Assembly (NCBI GenBank): GCA_024274915.1
Contig: JAJSAC010000024.1
Span: forward strand, 5,234 to 69,233
From: Thermodesulfobacteriota bacterium
GTDB lineage: Bacteria > Thermosulfidibacterota > Thermosulfidibacteria > Thermosulfidibacterales > B14-G1
Length of the DNA stretch: 64,000 bases
Direction: 5' to 3'
Below are positions 1-14,290 of this stretch, one piece after another. Under the pieces are notes generated by a model. The model did not search any database. It was not told where the DNA came from and saw only the letters and a list, made by a program, of their open reading frames with translations. The translations under genes were made by a program, and so were the position numbers. Every line of letters starts with the position of its first letter. Position 1 is the first letter of the stretch.

Positions 1-1517
1 CTAAGAATGACTTTGTCCATTGGTGGGAAAACTGGAGAGAAAAGGATACACCTCTCCCTGAAACCTTGAAGCCTTTCATAGATTGGTTTCTTCTTTTCCA
101 GGAAGGGGAGAGGATGAGGCTTTTTGAAGATCCTTCTTACAGGAAAAAAGTTAGGGTATTTCTTGAGGTGAGAGCTTTAATGATCCTTAAGAGAGAGGAA
201 GTTGATAAGAAGATAAAAGTAACTACGAGGGAGATTAAGAAAATATATAAAGAGAGATATGTTCCTCTCCTTCACGTCAGAGCCGTTGTGTTTCCGAAGG
301 AGAAGGAGGCAAGCGCTTTCCTTGAAAAAGCGAAGAAAGGGGAGAGCTTTGATGAATTAGTGAAGAGAACGTTTCCCAAAAACAATCGTAGAGCTTTTGA
401 CTGGGGATGGAGGAGACCCTTTGTGTTTCCCGCTTCCGTGAGGGAAAGTTTGATAAAGATGGAGGAAGGTAAGGTTATTGGTCCAGTGGAATGGATGGGA
501 AAATTTTGGCTTCTTGAACTTGTTGAGAAGAAGAAAGGTAGCGACAAAGACTTTAATAAGGTTAAAGGAAGGATAGAAGAAAAGTTGAGAAAAGAGCAGG
601 AGGGTAGGCTAACCTTAGCCCTTATTGAGAGATTGAAAAAGAAGTATCACGTATGGGTAGATTACAAGTTGTTAAAGTCCATCGACATTGATAATCCACA
701 AAAGGAGTATATGGATAAGCCCCTGTTGAGAATGGGGAAAGTTGAAATGAAGGTTAAGGATTTTTTGATACAAGTAAAAAGGGAGATAGACTTTAGAAAG
801 AAATATAAGTTTTCCATCAAGGACAAAGAAAAGATCAAAAGAATGGTGATGGGCAACCTCATATCCCAGACGTTAACGACATGGGAGGCTCTGAGTCGTC
901 ACTATGAGAGAAAACCTCCTTTTAAGTGGGTTTACCGCTTTTACTGTCAACATCGCATCATAAAGGAGCTGGAAAATCAACTCTTCTGGCCGAAGGTTAA
1001 GGTGTCCGAGGACGATGCTAAGAAATATTACCAGGAACACCTTTCTGAGTATAAGCTTCCCGGCCTGGTTAAAGTGGCAATTATCCAGACGGGGGATGAA
1101 AAACTCGTTGAGAAGTTGGAGAAGGCTCTCAACAGGGGAGAGGACTTCTTCGAGGTGGCCAAGAAGCTTACCTTTCATGGGGCCATCGTTCAGAGGGTTC
1201 CCGTGACTCACATGGCACCGGAGATGCAGAAGGTGGTATCTCGCCTTTCTCTAGGAGAGGTGAGTGCTCCCGTTAAAGTGGGAAAATACACATACATAGT
1301 GAAATTGATTGATAGGGTAGCAGAGAGACAGCGGCCTTTCGAAGAGGTGAAGAAGAGCATTTTGGACATCCTAAAAAAAGAGAGATTTGAAAAAGTTAAA
1401 GGGAGCTATTTGTCAGAACTGAGAAAGAGGTCTAAAATCGAAGTGAATGAGGCTGCCTGGCAAAGGGTAAGGGAAGAGTTGGGGAGGAAGGATGAAGCGG
1501 GTAAGAAGACTGGCTGA
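1..1517 (+). CDS. SurA/PpiC (parvulin)-type peptidyl-prolyl isomerase/chaperone, 5'-partial
   Basis: The track ORF is 66..1517, but the frame has no stop back to nt 3, so the true start lies upstream of the window. The protein is K/E-rich with parvulin-like segments (VKVAIIQTGDEKLVEKLEKALNRGEDFFEVAKK...GEVSAPVKVGKYTYIVKLID). It overlaps the next gene by 26 nt. Confidence 0.65.
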   Translation, partial: KNDFVHWWENWREKDTPLPETLKPFIDWFLLFQEGERMRLFEDPSYRKKVRVFLEVRALMILKREEVDKKIKVTTREIKKIYKERYVPLLHVRAVVFPKEKEASAFLEKAKKGESFDELVKRTFPKNNRRAFDWGWRRPFVFPASVRESLIKMEEGKVIGPVEWMGKFWLLELVEKKKGSDKDFNKVKGRIEEKLRKEQEGRLTLALIERLKKKYHVWVDYKLLKSIDIDNPQKEYMDKPLLRMGKVEMKVKDFLIQVKREIDFRKKYKFSIKDKEKIKRMVMGNLISQTLTTWEALSRHYERKPPFKWVYRFYCQHRIIKELENQLFWPKVKVSEDDAKKYYQEHLSEYKLPGLVKVAIIQTGDEKLVEKLEKALNRGEDFFEVAKKLTFHGAIVQRVPVTHMAPEMQKVVSRLSLGEVSAPVKVGKYTYIVKLIDRVAERQRPFEEVKKSILDILKKERFEKVKGSYLSELRKRSKIEVNEAAWQRVREELGRKDEAGKKTG

Positions 1518-3429
1518 GCTTTTGATTCTGGGGGTGGTGCTTTTATATTTGGGATGTGCTCCCGCTCCCCCTAGGAAGAGGGTGGTGAAGAAGTGCGTAG
1601 ACTGTCACAGCGATATGTATGCCAGGTATACGAAAGGGAACGTGCACAAACCTGTGGAAGGGGGAGATTGTGAGGTGTGCCATCGTCCCCACGGCCTTAT
1701 TGGAGGAGTGTATCTGAAGGAAGGTACACCCCAGCTGTGCTTCCGTTGTCACAAGGGTGTTGGCCGGGATGTGGGTAAGGCCTACGTTCACGAACCGGTG
1801 AAGGAGGGGAAGTGTGGAGGGTGCCACGAGTACCATAATTCTCCCAATCCCCACCTTTTGAAGGCGCCCATGGAAGGGTTTTGTTTCCTGTGCCACAAGA
1901 AGGCTGACTTCTCCAGGAAGTTTGTCCATTCCCCCGTGGAGAAGGGGTGTGGGACCTGCCATCTCCCCCATGCCTCTGACAATCCCTATCTCCTTAAGAT
2001 GTCCATGGATAACCTCTGCGCCTCGTGTCATGATGTGAAGGAGGGCTCTTTCGTCAAGGCCCATTACGGCTATCCCGTGAAGGGGAAGTGCACCCTCTGC
2101 CACGATCCCCACTCTTCGGACAATAAGGCCCTACTGAAAAAAGGGACCCATCCTCCCATGGTGGAGGGGGAGTGCGATTCTTGCCACTCTTCTCCTTCTT
2201 CCCCAAAGCCCTTTGCCCTTCAATTGAAGGGCGGGGCCCTCTGTTTCTCCTGCCACGACGGGGTGGAGGAGGAGGCTTCCCGAAAGGGGGCTCATCCTCC
2301 CCTCTCCAAGGGGGAGTGCCTCAGGTGTCACTCTCCCCATGCCAGCTCATTTAAGGGGTTGCTGAGAGTATCCCCGGAGTCCCTCTGCTGGAGGTGCCAC
2401 AAGGTAGGCAAGGGGAAGGGGGCCAGGGTGGTTCATACTCCTGCTAAGAGGGGTGATTGCCTCTCATGCCATGAGCCCCATGTTTCTTCAGTGGCTGCCC
2501 TGTTGAAGGAGTCCAGGAACAGGCTGTGTTTCCAGTGCCACGAAAGGAGCGGATTTTCTTCTAGCCACCCGCCGGCCTTTAAAGGGGAGTGCCTCAAGTG
2601 TCACGCTGCCCACGAGTCCAAGTTCAGGGGGCTGCTCGCGGGCCCGGAAGGTAAAACCTGTTTCTCATGCCACAAGAAGGTGGGCGAGGAGATGGGGAGG
2701 TTCAGCCTCCATCTCCCCTTTGCCAAGGGAAGGTGTTCTTCATGTCACAATCCCCGTGGATCTACCCGTGAAAACCTGCTTGTGGCTGACTCTGATCAGT
2801 TGTGCTGGAAATGCCATGGTAAGATGAAGAAGGTGTCCAAAGGGGCAAAGCTCCATCCGCCCTTTCAAGAGGGGGACTGCATGGCCTGTCATGGTCCCCA
2901 TTCCGGGGACGAACCCTCCCTCCTCAGGGAGAAGACGGGTAAGGTCTGTTTCTCGTGCCATGAGGGTGTGGAGGCTGAAGTTGCCTCTGCTAAGTTCTCT
3001 CATGAGCCTGTCAAGCTCCTCAACTGCACCAGATGTCACGATCCCCACGCTTCCACCCATGGAGCCTTCCTAATGAAGAAGGTACCTCTCTTATGTCTCA
3101 CCTGCCATAGGGACGTGGCCAAGTTCTGGGACAAAGGTGTGGCCCATCCTCCCGCTGAGGAGGAAGGGGGGTGCCTCCAATGCCACAGCCCCCATGGTTC
3201 TTCTAACAGGGGAATGCTCTCTAAGACCGCAGGGGTGCTATGTGCAGAGTGCCACGAGGAGGGAGGAAAGGCCTTCCTCAAGGATCATGGTGGGATTCGT
3301 CCTTCTCCGGGGGGCTGTTTGGGGTGTCACGACCCCCACGGTGGACTGGATGAAAGACTCCTGCTTCCAGTGGAGCATGCGCCCTTTGAGAAAGGACGTT
3401 GTATAGCCTGCCACATAGGGGGTGCATAA
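1492..3429 (+). CDS. 26-haem c-type cytochrome, probable lipoprotein
   Basis: Signal peptide with lipobox (LLYLG-C). I count 26 CXXCH motifs in 645 aa, arranged as about 13 diverged two-haem modules (CxxCH..H.P....G.CxxCH.PH......LL....LCxxCH). Confidence 0.95.
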   Translation: MKRVRRLAELLILGVVLLYLGCAPAPPRKRVVKKCVDCHSDMYARYTKGNVHKPVEGGDCEVCHRPHGLIGGVYLKEGTPQLCFRCHKGVGRDVGKAYVHEPVKEGKCGGCHEYHNSPNPHLLKAPMEGFCFLCHKKADFSRKFVHSPVEKGCGTCHLPHASDNPYLLKMSMDNLCASCHDVKEGSFVKAHYGYPVKGKCTLCHDPHSSDNKALLKKGTHPPMVEGECDSCHSSPSSPKPFALQLKGGALCFSCHDGVEEEASRKGAHPPLSKGECLRCHSPHASSFKGLLRVSPESLCWRCHKVGKGKGARVVHTPAKRGDCLSCHEPHVSSVAALLKESRNRLCFQCHERSGFSSSHPPAFKGECLKCHAAHESKFRGLLAGPEGKTCFSCHKKVGEEMGRFSLHLPFAKGRCSSCHNPRGSTRENLLVADSDQLCWKCHGKMKKVSKGAKLHPPFQEGDCMACHGPHSGDEPSLLREKTGKVCFSCHEGVEAEVASAKFSHEPVKLLNCTRCHDPHASTHGAFLMKKVPLLCLTCHRDVAKFWDKGVAHPPAEEEGGCLQCHSPHGSSNRGMLSKTAGVLCAECHEEGGKAFLKDHGGIRPSPGGCLGCHDPHGGLDERLLLPVEHAPFEKGRCIACHIGGA

Positions 3430-4598
3430 TGGGTTGGAGATGGTTCCCCTTCTTTCTTGTGTTTTTTCTTCTTCCCTTCTCCGCTTATGGAAAGACCGCT
3501 TTGTGTTTTAAGTGTCATAACAGAGCAGAGTTCCGAAAGGCTGTGGTCCACGGACCCGTGCGGGGGGGGAAGTGTGCCCTTTGCCATTCCCCCCACGTTT
3601 CCCGTTATCCGGGGCTTCTAGGCCAGCCCGCCCCCCGGCTCTGCTACTCCTGTCACAAAAGAGAGAAGGCAAGGTTTTCTCAAAGCAGATTTCTCCATTC
3701 TCCCGTGAAAAAGGGGAAATGTCTCACTTGTCACGATCCCCACGCCTCTGCCAGTAGGGGTCTTTTGAGAAAGGCTTTGCCCGGTCAATGTTATGGGTGC
3801 CATAAGGGTATGGCTAAGAAGTATGCCCGTTTTCACGCCCCTTTTAAAAAGGGAAGGTGCCTTGTATGCCATGATCCCCACAGTTCTTCCGACTATAGAC
3901 TTCTCAGGGGGGGAGACCCGGGCATTTGTCTCAGATGTCACAGGGACAGCCCTTCCATCAAAAAGGTGCATTTGGGGTACAGTTTGAAGGGAATCCAGTG
4001 CCTCTCCTGCCACAATCCCCACGGTAGCTCCAGGAAGGCGCTGATAAGGGAGAAGCTTCACGAGCCTTTTGCCCAGAAGGAGTGCGGGGAGTGTCACAAC
4101 CGCAAGGACAAGGGGCCTGAGCTCTGTTTCCAGTGCCACGACGATGTGGAGTCTGCCTTTTACACCAATCATAACCATCTCCTGGCGGGAGGCGTTAATC
4201 CGTGTGTCAGCTGTCACAGTCCCCACGCCTCGGATGAAAAGGCCTTGCTGGTGGGTAAGGAGGGGTATCTGTGTCAGAAGTGCCACGGGTACACGTATGA
4301 GAGGAAAGAAGAGGCCCTCTACATACACCCCGATTGGGGCGGGTGTACCAACTGTCATGATCCCCATGGATCCAATAGATTGGCCATGCTGGATGAGGGC
4401 GAAAATAAGCTGTGTGCCCGCTGCCATGAGACCCAGGGTAAGTTCACCCATCCCGTTGGGGATAAGTTTAGAGATCCCAGGAACGGCCAACCTATTACCT
4501 GCGTCACCTGCCATGATCCCATGGGCACCATGTTCAAGTTTAACCTGAAGAGGGGCGGTGATAAGGATCTCTGTATTCAGTGTCATAAGAGCTATTGA
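3429..4598 (+). CDS. 16-haem c-type cytochrome, secreted
   Basis: The ATG at 3429 overlaps the upstream TAA (TAATG) and is preferred over the track start at 3399. Signal peptide MGWRWFPFFLVFFLLPFSAYG. 16 CXXCH motifs of the same module type as the upstream gene. Confidence 0.95.
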   Translation: MGWRWFPFFLVFFLLPFSAYGKTALCFKCHNRAEFRKAVVHGPVRGGKCALCHSPHVSRYPGLLGQPAPRLCYSCHKREKARFSQSRFLHSPVKKGKCLTCHDPHASASRGLLRKALPGQCYGCHKGMAKKYARFHAPFKKGRCLVCHDPHSSSDYRLLRGGDPGICLRCHRDSPSIKKVHLGYSLKGIQCLSCHNPHGSSRKALIREKLHEPFAQKECGECHNRKDKGPELCFQCHDDVESAFYTNHNHLLAGGVNPCVSCHSPHASDEKALLVGKEGYLCQKCHGYTYERKEEALYIHPDWGGCTNCHDPHGSNRLAMLDEGENKLCARCHETQGKFTHPVGDKFRDPRNGQPITCVTCHDPMGTMFKFNLKRGGDKDLCIQCHKSY

Positions 4599-4611
4599 CG
4601 AGAGGTGGGTC

Positions 4612-5499
4612 ATGAGTGTGAAAAAGAGGCTGATGCTGTTTTTGCTGGTCTTTATTTTCTTATTGCCCTTCTCCATGGCCAATGGTGGTGGGGTTCCCTG
4701 GAAGTGGGTTATGAGCCTGGACATGGATAGGGCTGGGGTTCACGTCAGGGAGCCTACCGCTCTCTATTACGATGCTCGGGTGAAGCGATACTATGTGGTG
4801 GACAGTGGAAACCATAGGTTGGTTTCTTTTGACGAACAGGGCAGGTTTCTGAATCAGTTTGACGCCGGGGGGCAACTGAAGGGTCCCTTTGCCATGGTGA
4901 AGGATGTCCGGGGCAATCTCTGGGTGGTGGAAAAGAAGGTGAACAGTTTGACTTATATCCATTTAAAGAGAAGGGCTGTGGAGAGGCACTCCCTTGCCCT
5001 TCCCAACGGCGAGGCAGTCTTTCCCGATCGTCTGGCCATAGATGCCCAGGGGACCATTTACCTTTTGGATCGGGGCAGCGGCAAGGTGGTGGCGTTGGAC
5101 AAAGACCTCAGGGTGGTGAGGCAGTATGGGGCACCGGGAGGAGGGCGGTTCTGCGATTTCAAGTTGAAGAGCGATGGTGTGTGGGCTTTGGAGCCTTTGA
5201 CCAGGAGGGTCTATCATTTTTCTAAGGAGGGTAAGTTCCTCGGAGAAGTGGCCTTGAAGGGTGACCTGGCCTTCCCCATCTCCCTGGAGGTGGACTCCGT
5301 GGGGCTAATTTACATCGCCGACAGACCCGTGGGGAATGTGAAAGTCTTCGACTCCAGGGGTAACTTCAAATACTCCTTTTTAGAAAGGGGAGAGAACAGG
5401 GGGAGGATCTATTATCCTTTCCAGTTGGTCTTTGATGAGATGGGTAGGCTCTGCGTGGTGGAGGAGGGCAACGGGAGGGTAGAGGTGTTCCAGAGGTAG
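4612..5499 (+). CDS. NHL-repeat beta-propeller protein, secreted
   Basis: The ATG at 4612 gives signal peptide MSVKKRLMLFLLVFIFLLPFSMA; the track start at 4558 is less likely. Repeated blades: YYVVDSGNHRLVSF, IYLLDRGSGKVVAL, IYIADRPVGNVKVF, LCVVEEGNGRVEVF. Confidence 0.8.
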   Translation: MSVKKRLMLFLLVFIFLLPFSMANGGGVPWKWVMSLDMDRAGVHVREPTALYYDARVKRYYVVDSGNHRLVSFDEQGRFLNQFDAGGQLKGPFAMVKDVRGNLWVVEKKVNSLTYIHLKRRAVERHSLALPNGEAVFPDRLAIDAQGTIYLLDRGSGKVVALDKDLRVVRQYGAPGGGRFCDFKLKSDGVWALEPLTRRVYHFSKEGKFLGEVALKGDLAFPISLEVDSVGLIYIADRPVGNVKVFDSRGNFKYSFLERGENRGRIYYPFQLVFDEMGRLCVVEEGNGRVEVFQR

Positions 5500-5502
5500 A
5501 GG

Positions 5503-6558
5503 ATGAGGTCTGTATCTGTCCTTAAAAAATGGATTGGGGTCCTGGTGCTACTAGTTTTTCCCTTTGTAGTTCAGGCTAGGGTGACAGGACCCTGCTCCAA
5601 CTGTCACACTATGCACAACAGCCAGGGGGGGAGCGTTGTTGCCGCGGGAGGACCTAATGAGTCCCTGTTGGTGAGCAGTTGTGTGGGGTGTCATAGCTCT
5701 TCTTCGGCCAGCACTGTAGTGAGCGGTACGCCGATCGTTTACAGTACATCTAGTGCTCCCACTTATCCTTCTGACGGTACCTCTGCCGGTGCTTTGGCCG
5801 GTGGAAATTTCTACTGGGTAGCCCAGTCTGGTGGAGATGCCAAAGGTCACAATGTCCAAGGTGTAACCTCCGATGACAGCGCCCGCTTTTCTTATGTTCC
5901 TGGTTCTACTACTGCCTATTATCAGGTCACCTGTGCAGGCACGTCGGGGTGTCATGGAGACAGGACGGTGAGTGATCAGTATAAGGCCCTGTATGGGGCC
6001 CATCATGCCGATGACTCTCCTATAGATGGGACCACTGTAGGTACCAGCTTCAGATTTCTGGATGGTATTTTGGGTAAAGAGGATGACGATTGGGAGCAAA
6101 GCGTGGGGAGCGCCGATCACAACCAGTACAAAGGAGTGGATAGAGCCAATGAGACCCAGGATGATACCTCTACCATTAGCCATCTCTGCGCCGAGTGCCA
6201 CGGTGATTTTCACAATGGGAGTGGAAACCTGACACCCAGTGGAGGCACCTGGGGTTCTCCCTGGTTGAGACACCCCACGGACTACGACATGGGAAATACA
6301 CCATCAGGTTCTGAGTATAGGCAGTATTATTACTCAACTAAGGGTGACAATCTTTACAATCCCCTGGTGCCCCTTGCCAGTGCTGATATCTCTGCGGCGA
6401 TTTCTTCTGTGACCTTCAATGATGACACGATAGTCATGTGCCTCTCCTGCCACAGGGCCCATGGAAGCCCTTACGATAGCATCATGAGGTGGGACTATAA
6501 AAACTGGCCTGGAAGCGGGACTAATGGGTGCGTGGTGTGCCACACTTCCAAGGACTGA
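5503..6558 (+). CDS. Hexahaem c-type cytochrome, OmcS-family candidate
   Basis: Signal peptide ends ..VVQA. The mature N-terminus is RVTGPCSNCHTMHNS. There are five CXXCH motifs plus one CX5CH (CAGTSGCH). Motif order and flanks (CxxCHTMHNS, KGHN, CAECHGDFHN..LRHP, CLSCHRAHGSPYDS, C-terminal CVVCHTSKD) match what I recall of G. sulfurreducens OmcS. Composition is S/T/G/N/Y-rich, unlike the rest of the window. Confidence 0.8.
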   Translation: MRSVSVLKKWIGVLVLLVFPFVVQARVTGPCSNCHTMHNSQGGSVVAAGGPNESLLVSSCVGCHSSSSASTVVSGTPIVYSTSSAPTYPSDGTSAGALAGGNFYWVAQSGGDAKGHNVQGVTSDDSARFSYVPGSTTAYYQVTCAGTSGCHGDRTVSDQYKALYGAHHADDSPIDGTTVGTSFRFLDGILGKEDDDWEQSVGSADHNQYKGVDRANETQDDTSTISHLCAECHGDFHNGSGNLTPSGGTWGSPWLRHPTDYDMGNTPSGSEYRQYYYSTKGDNLYNPLVPLASADISAAISSVTFNDDTIVMCLSCHRAHGSPYDSIMRWDYKNWPGSGTNGCVVCHTSKD

Positions 6559-6568
6559 GGAGAAGGAC

Positions 6569-6910
6569 ATGGCTTTTGACAACAGGGTATTGGACAGAGC
6601 CATCAGGGAAAGGCGAAACAGACTCGAAGAGGAGCGCAGGAGGCTTCTTTCAAGGGTGATGGAAGCCTTGCGGGACATAAAGGATCGGTTTGGCATAAAG
6701 GAGGCCTATATTGTGGGTTCTCTGTTGGACTCCAGGCGTTGGGCGGAGTTTTCCGATGTGGACGTGGCGGTGGCCGGGGCCTCAGGTCATATTCTGGATA
6801 TTATGGGCCAGCTTGAGGAGGCCACTGGTAAGGAAGTGGATGTAATAGATCTGGATAGGCATCCTAACGCCGAAGCAATAAGGGTGAGGGGGTTGAAGGT
6901 CTATGGATAA
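6569..6910 (+). CDS. MNT-type nucleotidyltransferase (type VII TA antitoxin candidate)
   Basis: The ATG at 6569 is preferred over the track start at 6524, which overlaps the cytochrome gene. Minimal nucleotidyltransferase signature YIVGSLLDSRRWAEFSDVDVAV (GS...DxD). Confidence 0.8.
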   Translation: MAFDNRVLDRAIRERRNRLEEERRRLLSRVMEALRDIKDRFGIKEAYIVGSLLDSRRWAEFSDVDVAVAGASGHILDIMGQLEEATGKEVDVIDLDRHPNAEAIRVRGLKVYG

Positions 6911-7373
6911 GGGAGGGCTCGCACTATTAAGGGCTGATTTGTCTGAGCAGTGGAGGCAGGTATCCCGTCTTCACGTCCGTATTAGGGAGAAGTTGGAGGA
7001 CTTCAAAGAATCCCAGGAGGGGGTGGATAGCATGGGATATGCCCTCCACAATCTCTATTGCGCTTATGAAGAGCTCTTTGAAATAGTGGCCGGGCATTTT
7101 GAGAACCGGATAGAGTCGGGCCGGTACCATGCCAATCTGCTGAAAAGGATGAAGCTGAGCATAGAGGGTGTACGTCCCGCCCTTATTTCAGGAGAAACCT
7201 ATGGATTGCTGGATGAGCTTAGACGGTTTCGGCATTTCTTCCGCCATGCCTATGGGATGGATTTGGACCCGGAGAAGGTGGGGACTGTGGCCAGGAAGGC
7301 AGTGGAGCTTGAGGAGAGGTTTGAGAGGGACCTGAGGAGCTTCTTGAGGGCTCTGGGGGGATGGGAAGAATGA
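6903..7373 (+). CDS. HEPN-domain protein (HepT-like toxin candidate)
   Basis: Overlaps the MNT gene by 8 nt. All-helical, with an R-x4-H-x-Y motif (LRRFRHFFRHAYG) in the position typical of HEPN RNases. Confidence 0.75.
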   Translation: MDKGGLALLRADLSEQWRQVSRLHVRIREKLEDFKESQEGVDSMGYALHNLYCAYEELFEIVAGHFENRIESGRYHANLLKRMKLSIEGVRPALISGETYGLLDELRRFRHFFRHAYGMDLDPEKVGTVARKAVELEERFERDLRSFLRALGGWEE

Positions 7374-8638
7374 GGTTCACCATCTGGGTGGCGATTTTTC
7401 TGGTATTTTGTATGGCCGGATTTGCCTATGCAGGGAACTACACCTCCTCGGCCCACGGTGATTCTACTTACGGGGTGAGCAGGTCTGCCATGTCCGGTTA
7501 TGTCACCGGCAACTGCGCCCACTGTCACGAGATGCACGCCAGCGTGGAGGGAGTCACCTCCACGCCCTATCCCTATGCCCTCTTTTACTCCAATTACGTC
7601 TCCCAGACGGACCTGGTGTGTCTCCAGTGTCATGATGGGACCACCAGCGTTTCTTCGAGGGCTATCACCAATAGGAGCTACAGCTACAGGGCTGGGGGTT
7701 GGACGGCTGATACTATCAGTAGTGTGAAGAGCTCCTTCGATACCAGTGTGGAGGCCTCTGCTCATAATCTCAGCGATATCCTTTCTTTTATCCAGACCCA
7801 AAGCTGGGGCTTTAACTCATCTTCCACTCCCTGTGTGGCCTGTCACAGCCCCCATTATGCCCAGGGGGACCCGTTCAATGCCCCAAGCTCTCCCAAAACC
7901 TCATCTACCAGAGGCTGGCCCCTCACAAGGCCCAGTAAGCACGGAAGCACCAATTCTGCAGACTTTCTCTGGGGTGATGATTCTGGAGAGAAAATGAGTG
8001 ATTACGTGGGTGCCCTAACCTACCAGGCTCCTTACAGGTACGGCTCTACCTCGGCCTACGAGCCCGATGGCTCTACAACTACCAATGGCTCCAATCTTAC
8101 GGATATGAACACCCTTTGCCTGGACTGCCATTCCTCCGATATGAGCAGCTATGGCCTTAATAACACCCCCATAGACTGGAGCACTAACGGAGACAAGCAC
8201 GGCTTGGCGGGAGCTGATGGAGGAATCGACATAAAGGGTCCTTTCAGTGGTTCTAATTATGGAAGCTACGTTCTTGCCTGCACCGACTGCCACGAGCCCC
8301 ACGGTGCGCCCAATATCATGTTGATCAGGCAGGAAGTGAATGGGGACTATCTTAAAGACGCCAATGATAACTTGGCTCACATCACAAACTATGGCTCGAG
8401 TAGCAATGTATCCAATCAGCTGGGGTATCTTTGTCGCAGGTGCCACATAGATGATGCGGATTACTATAACAACCCTTCCTACAGAAATAGATGGCAGTAC
8501 GTGCACCACTATTCCCCTGACGCTCCTTACAGCAGGCGAAGATGCGGGCGGTGTCATTATTCGTACCCTATAAACTGTACCGATTGTCACTATCATGGAG
8601 CGGTGGATCCCAAGGGGACAGGCAGGAAGACCTTCTGA
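7361..8638 (+). CDS. Octahaem c-type cytochrome, secreted, S/T/N/Y/G-rich
   Basis: Signal peptide MGRMRFTIWVAIFLVFCMAGFAYA. Eight CXXCH motifs, the first as GNCAHCHEMHAS (a CxxCHxMH motif like the 5503 gene). Very low K/E content. Overlaps the HEPN gene by 13 nt. Confidence 0.9.
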   Translation: MGRMRFTIWVAIFLVFCMAGFAYAGNYTSSAHGDSTYGVSRSAMSGYVTGNCAHCHEMHASVEGVTSTPYPYALFYSNYVSQTDLVCLQCHDGTTSVSSRAITNRSYSYRAGGWTADTISSVKSSFDTSVEASAHNLSDILSFIQTQSWGFNSSSTPCVACHSPHYAQGDPFNAPSSPKTSSTRGWPLTRPSKHGSTNSADFLWGDDSGEKMSDYVGALTYQAPYRYGSTSAYEPDGSTTTNGSNLTDMNTLCLDCHSSDMSSYGLNNTPIDWSTNGDKHGLAGADGGIDIKGPFSGSNYGSYVLACTDCHEPHGAPNIMLIRQEVNGDYLKDANDNLAHITNYGSSSNVSNQLGYLCRRCHIDDADYYNNPSYRNRWQYVHHYSPDAPYSRRRCGRCHYSYPINCTDCHYHGAVDPKGTGRKTF

Positions 8639-8721
8639 GATGGGCCAGGAGCGGCGTCAGGTCTTGAACCAGGGTGTCTTGGCGAGGGACAGGGGGCAAA
8701 AGAAGAAACAAGGAGAAAACC

Positions 8722-10119
8722 ATGAAGGCTAAGGTGAAGATGATTGGGCGCTCTCTGGTTTATTTATTTGTGCTGGGGGTGGTGATGGGCTTATTTGTGG
8801 CACCCCTGGCCCTGGGCGAGGCCAGGATTTCCGTCTATCTCTCCCTCAAAAATCCTTCTGTCTCCCATGTGTGGTTCAGATGTAAGGAACTCTCCATTTC
8901 CCAGGATGGGAAGGAGTGGGTGACACTAAGGGACGATCCTGTGGGGGTGGATTCTTCTAAAGTTGCTAATGGGCAGGTACTTCTGGGCACTTTTACGGTT
9001 CCTTCCGGGACGTACAACAGTTTTAAGATCGCTTTGGAAAAAGCGGCCCTGAAAAAAGGTGGCAAACTTGTCCTCTTGTCTCTGGCCAGGAGGGAGCTCA
9101 CCATCCTCATCTTTCCCCCTTTAGACTTAAAAAGTGGCGACAGCACCTGCCTTTTCCTCCAGTGGGATGTTGAACGGTCGGTTGAGGAGGGATTCTCTTT
9201 TTCCCCTGTCATCTCCGCCAGGGTGCAGTCCATACCTTTGAGGGGGGAGTTGCTCTACGTCACCTGCGACGACATAGACACCCTCTACGTCGTTAGGGCG
9301 GACAAGAACTGGGTGGTGGGCTCCCTGGGTGTGGGGAGAGGGCCAAAGGGGCTTGAGTTGGACACTGAGCACAACAGGCTTTACGTGGTGGATTCGGGAA
9401 GTAGGGATATAAAGGTGGTGGAGCTGTCTACCAACAGGGTGGTGGACTCCATCATGCTACCTTTCGTTTTGGAGCCTACCTTCATAGAACTTTCACCCCA
9501 TGGGAGCGGGGCTTACGTGACAGATAGAAAGAGCAATTATCTTCTTAAAGTTAATCTTTCTTCTGGGATGGTGGAGAAGGAGACTGAGCTGGGCCATGGC
9601 CTTTACTATCCTCTCTATGTAGAAGACGAGGGTGTGTTGGCCGTCTCGTCACCATTGTCCCAGCTGGTGTATTTGGTCGATCCTGCTGACTTGAGGGTGA
9701 GGAGGGAGATAAGGGTGGGCTCTGCTCCTGAAGGGATTTTGGCTTACCAGGGTTACCTCTATGTGGCGGACAGAGGCTCCAACACGGTCTCGGTATACAG
9801 CTTTCGGGATGGAAGGATATTGGGCAGGGTTAACGTGGGATTTCAGCCCAGGCGTCTGGTGGGGAGTGGTAACAAAATCTATGTAAGTAACTATGGAGAG
9901 GGGACCCTCTCCCTCCTGTTGCCTGGCCGTCTAGTGGTTTTCAGGAAGATCACCGTTGGGGGGGCTCCTTTGGCCATGGCAGTGTGCGAAAGGCGCCGCT
10001 GGCTGTACGTTTTGGATAGAAAAGCCAAGAGGATCAAAGTCTTGGGACTAACCTCCGAGAGGCTGATGGCCACCATACCCCTGGGGGGCACCCCTTTTTC
10101 TGCCCGGGTTTTGCAGTGA
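8722..10119 (+). CDS. Secreted DUF4382-like N-domain + YVTN-family beta-propeller protein
   Basis: The ATG at 8722 has AGGAG at 8711-8715; the track start at 8674 is less likely. TM/signal segment LVYLFVLGVVMGLFVAPLALG. Repeats: LYVVDSGSRDIKVV, AYVTDRKSNYLLKV, LYVADRGSNTVSVY, IYVSNYGEGTLSLL, LYVLDRKAKRIKVL. Confidence 0.8.
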   Translation: MKAKVKMIGRSLVYLFVLGVVMGLFVAPLALGEARISVYLSLKNPSVSHVWFRCKELSISQDGKEWVTLRDDPVGVDSSKVANGQVLLGTFTVPSGTYNSFKIALEKAALKKGGKLVLLSLARRELTILIFPPLDLKSGDSTCLFLQWDVERSVEEGFSFSPVISARVQSIPLRGELLYVTCDDIDTLYVVRADKNWVVGSLGVGRGPKGLELDTEHNRLYVVDSGSRDIKVVELSTNRVVDSIMLPFVLEPTFIELSPHGSGAYVTDRKSNYLLKVNLSSGMVEKETELGHGLYYPLYVEDEGVLAVSSPLSQLVYLVDPADLRVRREIRVGSAPEGILAYQGYLYVADRGSNTVSVYSFRDGRILGRVNVGFQPRRLVGSGNKIYVSNYGEGTLSLLLPGRLVVFRKITVGGAPLAMAVCERRRWLYVLDRKAKRIKVLGLTSERLMATIPLGGTPFSARVLQ

Positions 10120-11536: not shown

Positions 11537-14290
11537 TTAATTCCTCAATCTCTCCCCCACGCCGTACTTAAACTCGAAGCCTTTTTCGCGGAAGAGGCGT
11601 AGGCAGGCGTCGGCCACTTGGGGGTCGTAGGTTTTCCCTCTGTTTTGGTCTATCTCTTCCAGGGCCTTTTCGATGCCCAGGGCAGGTCGATAAGGCCTGT
11701 GGGAAGACATGGCTTCTACCACGTCAGCCACCGCAACAATCTTTGCTTCCAGGGCAATTTCACTCCCTCGCAAACCGTAGGGATAGCCTGAACCGTCTAT
11801 TCGCTCATGGTGTTGGAGAACCATTTTGGCCACCGGCCAGGGGAGATCAACGTCTTCCAGGATACCGTAACCTTCTAGGGGGTGCTGTTTGATAAGAGCG
11901 AACTCGAAATCGCTGAGGCGGCCTGGTTTTACCAGGATCTCAGAGGGGATGGAAATTTTTCCAAGGTCGTGTACCAGTGCACCGATGTAGATTCCATGGA
12001 TGAGCTCTTCCTGTAGCCCCATCTCCAGTGCAATGGCTTTGGCAAGCTCGGCTACCCGCTTCTGGTGGCCAGCTGTGTAGGGGTCTCTCCTGTCGATGGC
12101 CAGGGCGAGGGCGTGTACCGTCCCCTCCAGGGCCGAGCGCACTTTCCTGTCGGACTCCTTGATCTTGGTTACATCCCTTATGATCAAGGTCCAATTCCCT
12201 GGTTCAGGGGCCATCTCCACGGGATAGCTTCTGATTTCGAATATCCTCTCCTTGGGCCCCTCAACCTCCCGCCATAACTCTGGGGGGGAGGGCTTCAGGA
12301 GTTCATCGACAGGGATGTCTCCCAGTCGTTCCAACCTGTCCCCCAGTCCGATGCCCCCTAGTAGGGCAAGGTATTGACCTCCTGTAGGGTTGCAAAGGGC
12401 CACATGTTTATCTTGGTTCAGTAAGACGATGCCTTCTGGAAGGGTTTCCACAAGGGTTTGGAGGCGCTGCTCCTGGGTGGCCAAGAATTCCCTGAGTCGT
12501 TGGACGGCTACCGAAGCCTGGTTTACCACGGTCTCGAGCAGGTTTACGTGTCTTTTGGAGAAGGCGTTTTCTTGTTCAGATCCAATCATGAGTATTCCCC
12601 GGGTTCTACCCTCGGGTTCTACTGGGAGGGACACTTGGAAAGAAGAGCCCAGGCGCTCCATGGGAGCAGGTTTCTTTTTTTCGAGTTCCCGAAACCTGAG
12701 GGTGATCTTCCTGTCTGCGATCTCTTCCCGGAAGGTTTCCAACAGGATCTGCTTTATTTCATTCAGGACTTCCTGGGATAAAGTTCGGGAGGGATAAACC
12801 ACTAGGTCAACCACCTGGTCTGTTGCCAGTAGCGTGGCGGCTACGTCGAAGTTCATAACTTCCTGAAGCCCGGTCACCACAAGGCGGAAAATCTCGTCGT
12901 AGCTTAGGGTATAACCAAACTTTTTGGTCACCTCGTAAAGGGTTTGGAGCTCGAAGGTTCGCTGGCGTACCCGTTCCTCCAAGGTGGCGTTGAGTTCCAT
13001 CAGTTTCTTCTCGTAGTGCTGGACTCTAATTACGGATGAGAAGGTGAGGAATAAGTCCTCGAGCACTCCCCTTTGCCTGTCGTTCAGGGCGTTTGTCCTG
13101 CTACTTACCAGCCCCAGGATGTTCTTTTCTTCTCCCTCCAGTTGGAGGGGAAAGATGAAGGCAGAGCGGAAGCCATGTTTTGCCACAAGCTCGGCTGCAG
13201 GTGATGGAAGTTGGTGTAGGTCTGGGATGTAAACGGACCTTCCCTCTTCTATCACTTTTTTGAAGCTTGACTGGAGTTTGATGGATTTGCCGGATGGGGG
13301 GAAAATTCTGTGGGCTTCCTGGGTCAGGGCTTGGACTTTGTTCTGGAAACCTCTGCGGATCCATTGGGGTACAAGATGGATCCCGTCCTTGGTTATGATC
13401 CAGGCGAGTATGGCATCTATGGGTAGTTCTTTACCCATGAGCTCATAGGCCTTTTCCAGGGCTTCTCCAGGGTTTCGCCGTGAGAGTATCCGATGGATTC
13501 GGTGGACCAGATTTTCTAGGCTCCTCTGTTCCATCTCTTCCGTGACATCTATCAACACGCCGGTAAAGGCTGCCAGCTCGCCTTTGGGGCTGTGTTCAAC
13601 TTTTACCTGGTCGCGGAGGCAGACCCAGCTTCCGTCTCTGCGACGGAAGCGGTATTCGATGATCAGGGTTTCTTTGCCCCTGAGGAGGGACTGGAAAGCA
13701 TGGATCACCTTTGGTCTGTCTTCAGGGTGGACGTTGCGATACCACAGATTTGGTCGGGTTTTGAAATCCTCCAGGGAATAACCGAGGAGGTCTTCCATGG
13801 GGCCGTGGATCTCGAGGCCCTGGAGGGTAGAGGGTCTGGTTTCGCCCCTGGAGGAGATGAGTTCCATGGGCAGGGGATAGCGCCATACTAAGGCTCGGGC
13901 GCGGAGGAGTATGTGACTGAGGGCTTCCCCCAGTTGTGCAGCGTGCCTGGCCTCTTCGGCAATGGCCTTCAGTACTTGTCTGAGGGAGACTTGGCCCAGT
14001 AGTTTTTCTCCCTTCAGCACCAGCCCCAAAGGGCAGGAGGAATTTGCCAGTATTTCTGCTGCCTCCGGCAAAGAGAGGTTTGGGGACAGAAGGGGAGGAT
14101 CTACCAGGGGGAGGTCAACCACCAAGCGCGTGCTGGGGTAGCCTATTGCCATCTGGGGAAGCAAAAGGCGCCAGCGGTCCCTGCAAAGTACAGCCACGGG
14201 ACCTCCCCGGGTGAGGTTTTTTTGGATATCTTTTAAGATGGTTCTGTCGTGACAGGTTACGGCTGGCTGAAGAAGATCTCGGATCACCAT
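11537..14290 (-). CDS. Multidomain HD-GYP c-di-GMP phosphodiesterase (CBS-like, PAS, GAF, PAS, HD-GYP)
   Basis: C-terminal HDLGKISIP...HHERIDGSGYPYGL. PAS-like (PEDRPKVIHAFQ..EYRFRRRDGSWV) and GAF-like segments lie upstream. Confidence 0.85.
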   Translation of the reverse strand: MVIRDLLQPAVTCHDRTILKDIQKNLTRGGPVAVLCRDRWRLLLPQMAIGYPSTRLVVDLPLVDPPLLSPNLSLPEAAEILANSSCPLGLVLKGEKLLGQVSLRQVLKAIAEEARHAAQLGEALSHILLRARALVWRYPLPMELISSRGETRPSTLQGLEIHGPMEDLLGYSLEDFKTRPNLWYRNVHPEDRPKVIHAFQSLLRGKETLIIEYRFRRRDGSWVCLRDQVKVEHSPKGELAAFTGVLIDVTEEMEQRSLENLVHRIHRILSRRNPGEALEKAYELMGKELPIDAILAWIITKDGIHLVPQWIRRGFQNKVQALTQEAHRIFPPSGKSIKLQSSFKKVIEEGRSVYIPDLHQLPSPAAELVAKHGFRSAFIFPLQLEGEEKNILGLVSSRTNALNDRQRGVLEDLFLTFSSVIRVQHYEKKLMELNATLEERVRQRTFELQTLYEVTKKFGYTLSYDEIFRLVVTGLQEVMNFDVAATLLATDQVVDLVVYPSRTLSQEVLNEIKQILLETFREEIADRKITLRFRELEKKKPAPMERLGSSFQVSLPVEPEGRTRGILMIGSEQENAFSKRHVNLLETVVNQASVAVQRLREFLATQEQRLQTLVETLPEGIVLLNQDKHVALCNPTGGQYLALLGGIGLGDRLERLGDIPVDELLKPSPPELWREVEGPKERIFEIRSYPVEMAPEPGNWTLIIRDVTKIKESDRKVRSALEGTVHALALAIDRRDPYTAGHQKRVAELAKAIALEMGLQEELIHGIYIGALVHDLGKISIPSEILVKPGRLSDFEFALIKQHPLEGYGILEDVDLPWPVAKMVLQHHERIDGSGYPYGLRGSEIALEAKIVAVADVVEAMSSHRPYRPALGIEKALEEIDQNRGKTYDPQVADACLRLFREKGFEFKYGVGERLRN

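Follow-up and report, generated by a model that had tools for sequence, protein, structure and literature searches.

An octahaem c-type cytochrome of the Apc2a/b-like family encoded in an osc-type gene cluster: a candidate extracellular electron-transfer protein

The octahaem gene, its product and its family

The window analysed here is a stretch of 64,000 nucleotides from Thermodesulfobacteriota bacterium (GenBank assembly GCA_024274915.1, contig JAJSAC010000024.1, positions 5,234 to 69,233 of the forward strand). At positions 7361–8638 of its + strand lies an open reading frame (ORF) of 425 codons, the translation of which is an octahaem c-type cytochrome of 425 amino acids, designated hereafter as the octahaem protein. 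Both the length and the eight CXXCH motifs given for it in an earlier note on this DNA agreed with the translation and with a motif count. The motifs start at residues 52, 87, 158, 253, 307, 358, 395 and 406, and a scan of the 425-residue sequence detected no CXXCK, CX3CH or CX4CH motif. Sixteen of the 17 cysteines of the precursor belong to CXXCH motifs and constitute all cysteines of the mature protein, the remaining one (C17) being located in the signal peptide. The gene may start at the ATG at 7370 instead of 7361, resulting in a polypeptide of 422 amino acids, because a G-rich ribosome-binding site is better placed there. The features of the gene are:

7361..7432, + strand: Sec-type signal peptide (residues 1–24) ending AYA↓G, without a lipobox; sequence MGRMRFTIWVAIFLVFCMAGFAYA, followed by GNY
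7433..7567, + strand: conserved N-terminal segment of the mature octahaem protein (residues 25–69) with the invariant His32, motif 1 (C52–H56, nt 7514–7528), His54 and His59
7514..8446, + strand: six-haem core with CXXCH motifs 1–6 at nt 7514–7528, 7619–7633, 7832–7846, 8117–8131, 8279–8293 and 8432–8446
8468..8635, + strand: optional C-terminal two-haem module (residues ~370–425) with motif 7 (nt 8543–8557), motif 8 (nt 8576–8590), His382 and His412

Ten non-motif histidines, namely His32, 54, 59, 135, 165, 194, 280, 314, 382 and 412, show a conservation of 94% or more and are available for eight distal positions; His59, 135, 165, 194, 280 and 314 are those of the six-haem core. All eight haem motifs were invariant or nearly so in an alignment of 67 homologues and are not chance occurrences. 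Motif 1, which the earlier note had placed near the mature N-terminus, is not at its very start, since 27 conserved residues including His32 separate it from the likely cleavage site (AYA↓G, residue 24). Conservation was 0.69 over the N-terminal 45 mature residues compared with 0.63 overall, and reached 0.87 around motif 1.

The composition of the octahaem protein is unusual. Serine, threonine, asparagine, glycine and tyrosine make up 43.5% of its residues and 41.9% of those of an OmcS-like cytochrome encoded upstream, against a median of 24% and a next highest value of 28.8% among the 38 window ORFs of at least 250 amino acids; aspartate, glutamate, lysine and arginine account for 15.1%, against a median of 24% in the same set. 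The S/T/N/Y/G-rich, low-charge composition described earlier is therefore real, and an outlier common only to these two proteins. The octahaem protein has a calculated pI of 6.2, 15% charged residues and 5.8 kDa of polypeptide per haem as the precursor (5.5 kDa when mature), whereas the 26- and 16-haem cytochromes encoded in the same cluster have a pI of ~9, 24% charged residues and ~2.9 kDa per haem.

The anatomy of the family was examined in 215 full-length members aligned to the family profile. Motifs 1–6 were intact in 213–215 members, while motif 7 and motif 8 were each intact in 159 and both were missing from 47. Among the 56 members without haem 8, His412 was kept in a single one. Eight haem motifs were counted in 128 members, seven in 60 and six in 24, and a lipobox-like motif was present in three only. 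As motifs 1–6 are near-universal, motifs 7 and 8 are dispensable and His412 tracks haem 8, the family is best described as one in which a core of six haems may or may not be joined by a C-terminal two-haem module. We are highly confident that the octahaem protein is the eight-haem form of this family, a c-type cytochrome that is exported via Sec, is not a lipoprotein and carries eight canonical CXXCH haems, all of which could be bis-His ligated; because the conserved histidines suffice for such ligation at every haem, its role is taken to be electron transfer and not catalysis.

A relative from Seep-SRB2 sp. 8 (locus L069), 40% identical over residues 6–425 (tblastn, E=4e-82), allowed the family to be identified. 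This protein, MBW2350083.1, is listed together with four of its cluster-mates in column 6 ('apc2ab-like') of S6 Table of Murali et al. (2023; PMC10553843), where the group is described as 'putative filament forming cyt c' with 6–8 haems and 5.71 kDa per haem, and is predicted to be extracellular. The octahaem protein hence belongs, on sequence grounds, to Cluster 6 of Murali et al. (2023), the Apc2a/b-like family. It has the haem number (eight; 6–8 in the family) and the protein mass per haem (5.5–5.8 kDa) of that family, and its gene is found in an Hml/Oet (osc-type) cluster with an OmcS-like gene. The name 'apc2ab-like' was not found in the other papers of the literature searched; the family was catalogued and named in 2023 and has never been characterised experimentally. 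The earlier statement that no characterised family could be recognised holds in that nothing characterised was found, but a catalogued family did exist. Membership of it says little on mechanism.

Homologues were numerous. In a search space of 5.8 billion proteins (threshold E≤0.001) the octahaem protein matched 1,288 clusters; the matches listed were mostly full-length (390–480 amino acids) and 43–86% identical, and were named, where named at all, as 'cytochrome c3 family protein', 'hypothetical' or equally generically. An exhaustive HMMER scan of the 50%-identity representatives recovered 461 clusters (162 at E≤1e-30), and 311 stretches of species-representative genomes encode relatives. Judged from the best 80 of these 311 stretches, mostly by the labels of metagenome-assembled genomes (MAGs), the relatives belong predominantly to Nitrospirota/Thermodesulfovibrionia, Thermodesulfobacteriota (Thermosulfurimonas, Thermodesulfatator) and Desulfurivibrionaceae, the rest carrying Desulfobulbaceae, Desulfobacterales, Desulfuromonadales, Deferribacteres and Aquificota labels. 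Hydrothermal-vent metagenomes are the source of the nearest relatives, which are 86% identical; the closest named ones are from Thermosulfurimonas, the match in T. dismutans being a MAG assigned to that species. The OmcS-like protein of the window has a 100%-identical database entry (P0278), and as the best match of the octahaem protein is only 86% identical, the octahaem gene may have gone uncalled in the source record. Family members were also seen on archaeal-binned contigs, L070 (Heimdallarchaeota, 10.4 kb, extending from the PPIase to the YVTN gene described below) and L073 (Methanosarcinales, 3.3 kb, with the octahaem gene), which are most likely mis-binned bacterial DNA from mixed consortia.

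Several homologues depart from the common architecture. In four divergent members (P0014, P0123, P0187 and P0197) a pretoxin-HINT domain (PF07591) of 125–140 amino acids is inserted exactly between motifs 7 and 8, which in the window protein corresponds to a point between residues 399 and 406 (nt 8558–8575). The domain begins S/A-F-x-x-(E/D)-T and ends in LVHN with its conserved His-Asn, followed by M, P or G; as position +1 is never Cys, Ser or Thr, the sequences suggest self-cleavage to be likelier than intein splicing. A HINT domain within a secreted c-type cytochrome is unusual. Long N-terminal extensions occur in P0180 (nine MopE-type copper-binding repeats and Lcl_C domains) and P0267 (thrombospondin type 3 (TSP3) repeats), and P0130, P0134, P0143, P0161, P0206 and P0231 were grouped with these two, the extensions consisting of MopE/Lcl_C, TSP3 or 5–9 extra haem motifs. 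In P0148, a protein of 651 amino acids from the representative search, one ORF encodes an OmcS-like part (its C-terminal two-thirds; profile positions 104–348, E=4e-81) with a complete octahaem module directly behind it; either the two neighbours are naturally fused here or a stop codon was lost on a truncated contig.

The osc-type gene cluster

The octahaem gene is part of a group of genes encoded on the + strand, which is followed by a signalling gene on the opposite strand:

66–1517, + strand: SurA-like peptidyl-prolyl isomerase (PPIase; Pfam), probably cut by the window start
1492–3429, + strand: 26-haem cytochrome (by haem count)
3399–4598, + strand: 16-haem cytochrome (by haem count)
4558–5499, + strand: NHL propeller (Pfam)
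5503–6558, + strand: OmcS-like cytochrome of 351 amino acids with five CXXCH motifs and an invariant C-x5-C-H (single-sequence match to 6ef8, E=5.8e-7)
6524–6910, + strand: MNT nucleotidyltransferase of a toxin-antitoxin pair (Pfam PF18765/PF20797, E=4e-29)
6903–7373, + strand: HepT-like protein, forming the toxin-antitoxin pair (6524–7373) with MNT
7361–8638, + strand: octahaem gene, Apc2a/b-like
8674–10119, + strand: protein of 481 amino acids with DUF4382 and YVTN beta-propeller/NHL-type repeats (Pfam, NCBIfam), directly downstream of the octahaem gene
11537–14290, − strand: PAS/GAF/HD-domain (HD-GYP-like) signalling protein of 917 amino acids, just downstream on the opposite strand

No terminator-like site was found between the cluster genes from 66 to 10119, and the window contains all four osc/Hml core genes (PPIase, 26-haem cytochrome, 16-haem cytochrome and NHL propeller) in one operon. 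Rotamase-type genes likewise occur as neighbours in relatives. The same four-gene core, in which a PPIase and a six-bladed propeller accompany the 16- and 26-haem cytochromes, was described from sulfate-reducing partners of anaerobic methane-oxidising (ANME) archaea, Desulfuromonadales and Thermodesulfobacteriales, its products predicted to be periplasmic and its genes 'often' surrounded by those of smaller cytochromes and propellers (Skennerton et al., 2017). In the nomenclature of Murali et al. (2023; PMC10553843) the large cytochromes are HmlA and HmlB, and OmcS-like, OmcX and 'Apc2a' proteins encoded in or near the cassette are regarded as putative nanowires. The Geobacter sulfurreducens counterpart is the osc (omcS companion) operon, GSU2500–2493, which has been tied to maturation and secretion of the OmcS nanowire; GSU2496–2493 are named oscH–K, with GSU2495 encoding OscI (~70 kDa, 26 haems) and GSU2494 encoding OscJ. 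According to papers that cite Shen et al. (2025), OscH is proposed to function in folding, OscE/F/G in secretion and OscD in morphology. From haem number, domain type and gene order as described, and not from alignment, we infer the window genes to be equivalent to GSU2496–2493.

Synteny was assessed in 67 non-redundant loci with at least 1.5 kb of upstream sequence. An OmcS-like gene was located immediately upstream of the octahaem gene in 34 of the 67 and anywhere in the locus in 46. The order PPIase, 26-haem cytochrome, 16-haem cytochrome, (NHL propeller), OmcS-like cytochrome, octahaem cytochrome recurs across phyla, for instance in Thermosulfurimonas sp. F29 (JAIFYA010000001.1, 74–96 kb) and in Nitrospirota, and in many other loci.

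The OmcS-like and octahaem genes are separated by the MNT/HepT pair, a local insertion that overlaps the ends of both. Most related loci lack the pair at this position; in an 86%-identical relative (L001/L002) HepT is reduced to a remnant of 34 amino acids. A similar toxin-antitoxin pair is located just downstream of the octahaem gene in the Nitrospirota locus L006. Homologues of the DUF4382/YVTN gene (8674–10119), which may be the counterpart of the Geobacter OscD 'morphology' factor, directly follow the octahaem gene in 9 of 69 loci and are found within the locus, beside the OmcS-like or the octahaem gene, in 15 of 82. The PAS/GAF/HD protein (11537–14290) is encoded at the corresponding place in two close relatives, L001 and L002, and, because of this conserved position, may regulate the cluster. 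In the OmcS-like neighbour, haem site 3 (residues 144–151) reads C-A-G-T-S-G-C-H, with C144, G146, G149, C150 and H151 invariant in 66 homologues, whereas OmcS itself has CSSCH at this site; the C-x5-C-H arrangement probably explains why such OmcS-like proteins have been counted as 'pentahaem' in the literature.

Location and role of the octahaem protein

A search of the Protein Data Bank (PDB) with the single octahaem sequence gave no match. The family profile matched MtrF domain IV (E=1.2e-5), 6r2q chain A (a multihaem protein of 333 amino acids, E=4.5e-5), NrfA (E=0.003) and OmcE (7tfs, E=0.009), so that the profile comparison with OmcE and OmcZ proposed in the earlier note yielded one weak match, OmcZ being absent at E≤10. 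Pfam family PF22113 (MtrC/MtrF domains II/IV) scored 34.8 bits against a cut-off of 30 bits, the best stretch being residues 48–109. The profile of the neighbouring OmcS-like family, used as a positive control, matched 6ef8 (OmcS) at E=1.4e-21 and nothing else.

Profile–profile comparison with a second tool matched the octahaem and OmcS-like families locally, over the segment from haem 1 to haem 2 including His59 (95%, E=2e-8); no region other than the N-terminal segment gave a local profile match to that family. The first haem motif reads GNCAHCHEMHAS (C52–H56, H59) in the octahaem protein and GPCSNCHTMHNS in the OmcS-like one. The C-x-x-C-H-x-M-H arrangement to which the earlier note had drawn attention is thus present in both proteins, but its methionine is not a feature of the family (Gln in 156 and Met in 21 of the 215 members). 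The second histidine, His59, is kept in 190 of the 215 members and in 97% of the 67-sequence alignment. As CxxCHxxH is common across the superfamily, including CHxPH in the 26- and 16-haem neighbours, this motif alone is a weak tie to OmcS. In OmcS, one axial histidine of haem 5 is supplied by the neighbouring subunit. We take this residue to be His16 and His59 to be its equivalent in the octahaem protein. The surplus of distal histidines, ten conserved for eight haems, is uninformative with regard to such an inter-subunit ligand, since the OmcS-like family has a like surplus.

An AlphaFold2 (AF2) model of the octahaem monomer (predicted local distance difference test (pLDDT) 71.5, predicted template modelling score 0.75) had its lowest confidence in the N-terminal segment (pLDDT 38–49), as would be expected of a well-conserved segment if it packed on a haem or on a neighbouring subunit. 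Foldseek searches with this model against the PDB returned no match, and as a control model of a true OmcS homologue (pLDDT 66) likewise returned none, the negative carries no meaning. Judged from the sequence features set out in the last section, an OmcS-like architecture of the octahaem protein is plausible.

The octahaem protein probably acts outside the outer membrane, on account of its OmcS-like composition, the 5.5–5.8 kDa of protein per haem, the fusion of homologues to extracellular-type domains (MopE/Lcl_C, TSP3) and the osc/Hml-type cluster, and in line with the extracellular location predicted for the family (Murali et al., 2023). For the more specific proposal that it forms or joins a cytochrome filament as an extracellular electron-transfer protein the chances appear about even; this reading is based on the role of the Geobacter cluster in nanowire maturation and secretion, on the correspondence of His59 to OmcS His16, and on the conserved N-terminal segment that AF2 could not place. 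Following haem attachment in the periplasm, the protein would be handed over to an Osc-like machinery and become part of a filament carrying electrons between an outer-membrane conduit and minerals, sulfur species or partner cells. It might polymerise head to tail with further copies of itself, a possibility that we put forward tentatively, and in which the N-terminal segment (His32/His59) would pack against the next subunit, perhaps ligating its haem as in OmcS, with the C-terminal two-haem module serving as a side branch or chain extension for the entry or exit of electrons. Attachment as a partner to a filament of the OmcS-like protein seems rather improbable. More speculative, and on balance doubtful, is a new class of nanowire in which an OmcS-type six-haem main chain and an N-terminal, histidine-bearing contact would be combined with a C-terminal two-haem side branch acting as a regularly spaced, solvent-exposed electron tap; in a variant of it, the octahaem protein may form an obligate two-protein filament with its OmcS-like neighbour.

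A number of results weigh against a filament of the OmcS type. OmcS was absent from the PDB matches of the octahaem family profile at E-values up to 10. Comparison of the octahaem and OmcS-like families by hhalign gave 98% probability (E=2e-14) with six motifs collinear, and the control with a reversed sequence was clean, but a further control, a 16-haem family that is unrelated, scored nearly as high (97%, E=1e-10), and removal of the CXXCH columns abolished all signal in both comparisons (E ~0.05), from which we conclude that the similarity to OmcS is largely motif-driven. Membership of the OmcS family, considered in view of these comparisons, is not claimed. About one-third of the loci have no OmcS-like gene in the fetched flanks, and in eight of these that were inspected (from Desulfurivibrionaceae, Nitrospirae and various 'Deltaproteobacteria' or 'Proteobacteria' MAGs) the octahaem gene was located among housekeeping or unrelated genes, with no osc-type cluster and no OmcS-like, 26-haem or 16-haem gene within 7 kb. 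A link in cis to the Osc machinery is therefore not obligatory, and the suggestion that the protein is a cap or nucleator, if strictly dependent on the hexahaem gene, is weakened by the same loci. Of the four Geobacter paralogues only OmcS is known to polymerise, and OscC (GSU2501) is given as periplasmic in one table. The bulky N-terminal extensions of some homologues, with extra haems or adhesin-like domains, would hinder an N-terminal head-to-tail contact unless cleaved off. Of the earlier proposal of an extracellular or filament-type cytochrome, what stands is a secreted, non-enzymatic protein functionally tied by synteny to the OmcS-like gene; homology to OmcS is statistically insecure, and the shared motif only partly conserved.

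The results have also to be weighed against roles that involve no filament. Direct redox reactions with minerals, sulfur species or shuttles, carried out by a non-polymeric extracellular cytochrome comparable to MtrC, OmcA or OcwA, either free or at the cell surface, would agree with MtrF domain IV and 6r2q chain A as the best profile matches, with a PF22113 score above cut-off, with the resemblance of homologues bearing adhesin-like or multihaem extensions to modular surface proteins and with the stand-alone genes away from osc clusters. We nevertheless consider this role unlikely, as the PF22113 match spans 62 residues only, MtrC-type beta-barrels and a lipobox are lacking, and the matches to MtrF-type proteins are as motif-driven as those to OmcS, while the cross-phylum adjacency to an OmcS-like gene in a nanowire-assembly-type cluster fits a filament role better. 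The protein might instead never leave the cell and act as a periplasmic carrier between inner-membrane quinol oxidoreductases, the 26- and 16-haem proteins and an outer-membrane conduit; its sole targeting signal is the Sec signal peptide, with none recognisable for the outer membrane, and the predicted periplasmic location of the core osc/Hml proteins and the listing of GSU2501/OscC as periplasmic point the same way. Such a carrier is improbable given a composition and mass per haem far from those of the periplasmic-type 26- and 16-haem proteins of the same operon, the fusions of homologues to extracellular-type domains and the prediction of Murali et al. (2023).

An octahaem enzyme (tetrathionate, nitrite, hydroxylamine or sulfite oxidoreductase of the OTR, ONR, HAO or MccA type) is suggested by eight haems in a protein of ~430 amino acids and by a host lineage that cycles sulfur. 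No octahaem-enzyme match was found in Pfam, NCBIfam (TIGR04315 was not matched) or PDB sequences, however, all eight motifs are canonical CXXCH with no CXXCK or unusual motif, the ten conserved non-motif histidines exceed the eight distal sites, and a quarter of the family can dispense with haems 7 and 8. Such an enzyme, named in the earlier note as the finding that would overturn an extracellular role, was rejected as very improbable, neither a family match nor a catalytic-site signature having been obtained.

The solved folds of cytochrome nanowires are few (OmcS, OmcE-type including archaeal forms, and OmcZ), and the family bears on the question of how cytochromes connect thermophilic sulfur-cycling bacteria, and the bacteria that partner methane-oxidising archaea, to minerals or to each other. 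The octahaem family, with 461 clusters at 50% identity in at least five phyla, is reported to be highly expressed in methane-oxidising consortia and adjoins OmcS-like genes in a cluster linked to nanowire assembly. If the branched filament outlined above were real, Osc-made filaments of this kind would be widespread in thermophilic sulfur-cycling bacteria, in Nitrospirota and in bacterial partners of methane-oxidising archaea. As a cultured carrier exists (Thermosulfurimonas sp. F29), the question of a filament can be tested directly. The present analysis newly shows a six-plus-two haem architecture, how broad the family is and that its adjacency to OmcS-like genes is conserved far outside the ANME partners; the negative controls, also new, caution against calling the octahaem protein an OmcS homologue. 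The window gene is an ordinary family member, a worthwhile target for electron cryo-microscopy and no surprise.

Comparison with known cytochromes

With MtrF, MtrC and OmcA (PF22113; 3PMQ) the octahaem protein may share a role in extracellular electron transfer, and its motifs 4–7 align to the four motifs of MtrF domain IV with matching spacing. This match is short and driven by haem motifs. The octahaem protein differs from these proteins in having no beta-barrel domains I/III, for which there is no room in 425 amino acids and no match, and no lipoprotein signal, and its gene is not beside an MtrAB-type pair. The OmcE-type tetrahaem cytochromes (7TFS) have in common with it an 'H-(N/D)-L ... 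CxxCH-x-PH-x-AQ-x-D' segment and a motif like that of haem 5, and variants with extra haems occur in both families; some of the matched segments differ in order, the match is not significant given the motif bias, and haem number and size differ. G. sulfurreducens OmcZ likewise has eight haems per subunit, and the C-terminal two-haem module might be compared with the solvent-exposed haem that OmcZ carries to the side of its main chain. OmcZ attaches haem 1 via a non-canonical motif, whereas the octahaem protein has canonical motifs only; all haems of OmcZ are ligated within one subunit, and it is not encoded in an osc-type cluster.

OmcS (6EF8/6NEF; paralogues OmcT, OscC and OmcJ) resembles the octahaem protein in being secreted, low in charge and rich in coil, with an unusual composition common to both. 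In alignment the first six motifs fall in collinear order, with similar early spacings of 35, 71 and 95 residues in the octahaem protein compared with 37, 92 and 101 in OmcS. A histidine is located three residues past motifs 1, 3 and 5 in both, a further one lies in an s-H-N-[LV] context between motifs 2 and 3 of the octahaem and OmcS-type proteins, and the surroundings of motif 5 are alike (CTDCHEPHGAPNIMLIR and CLSCHRAHGSPYDSIMR, compared with CLSCHRAHASGFDSMTR in OmcS). Both OmcS and the octahaem family are encoded with an osc-type cluster. The octahaem protein differs by two extra C-terminal haems and by an extra N-terminal segment of 27 residues with the invariant His32.

To the Apc2a/b-like proteins the relation is one of family, with 6–8 haems, ~5.7 kDa per haem and genes that adjoin OmcS-like genes in an Hml/Oet cluster. 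These proteins are known from syntrophic sulfate reducers that partner ANME archaea, whereas the copy in the window comes from a thermophile-type hydrothermal-vent lineage that is not a known ANME partner, and is set apart from those elsewhere by the toxin-antitoxin pair between the octahaem and OmcS-like genes.

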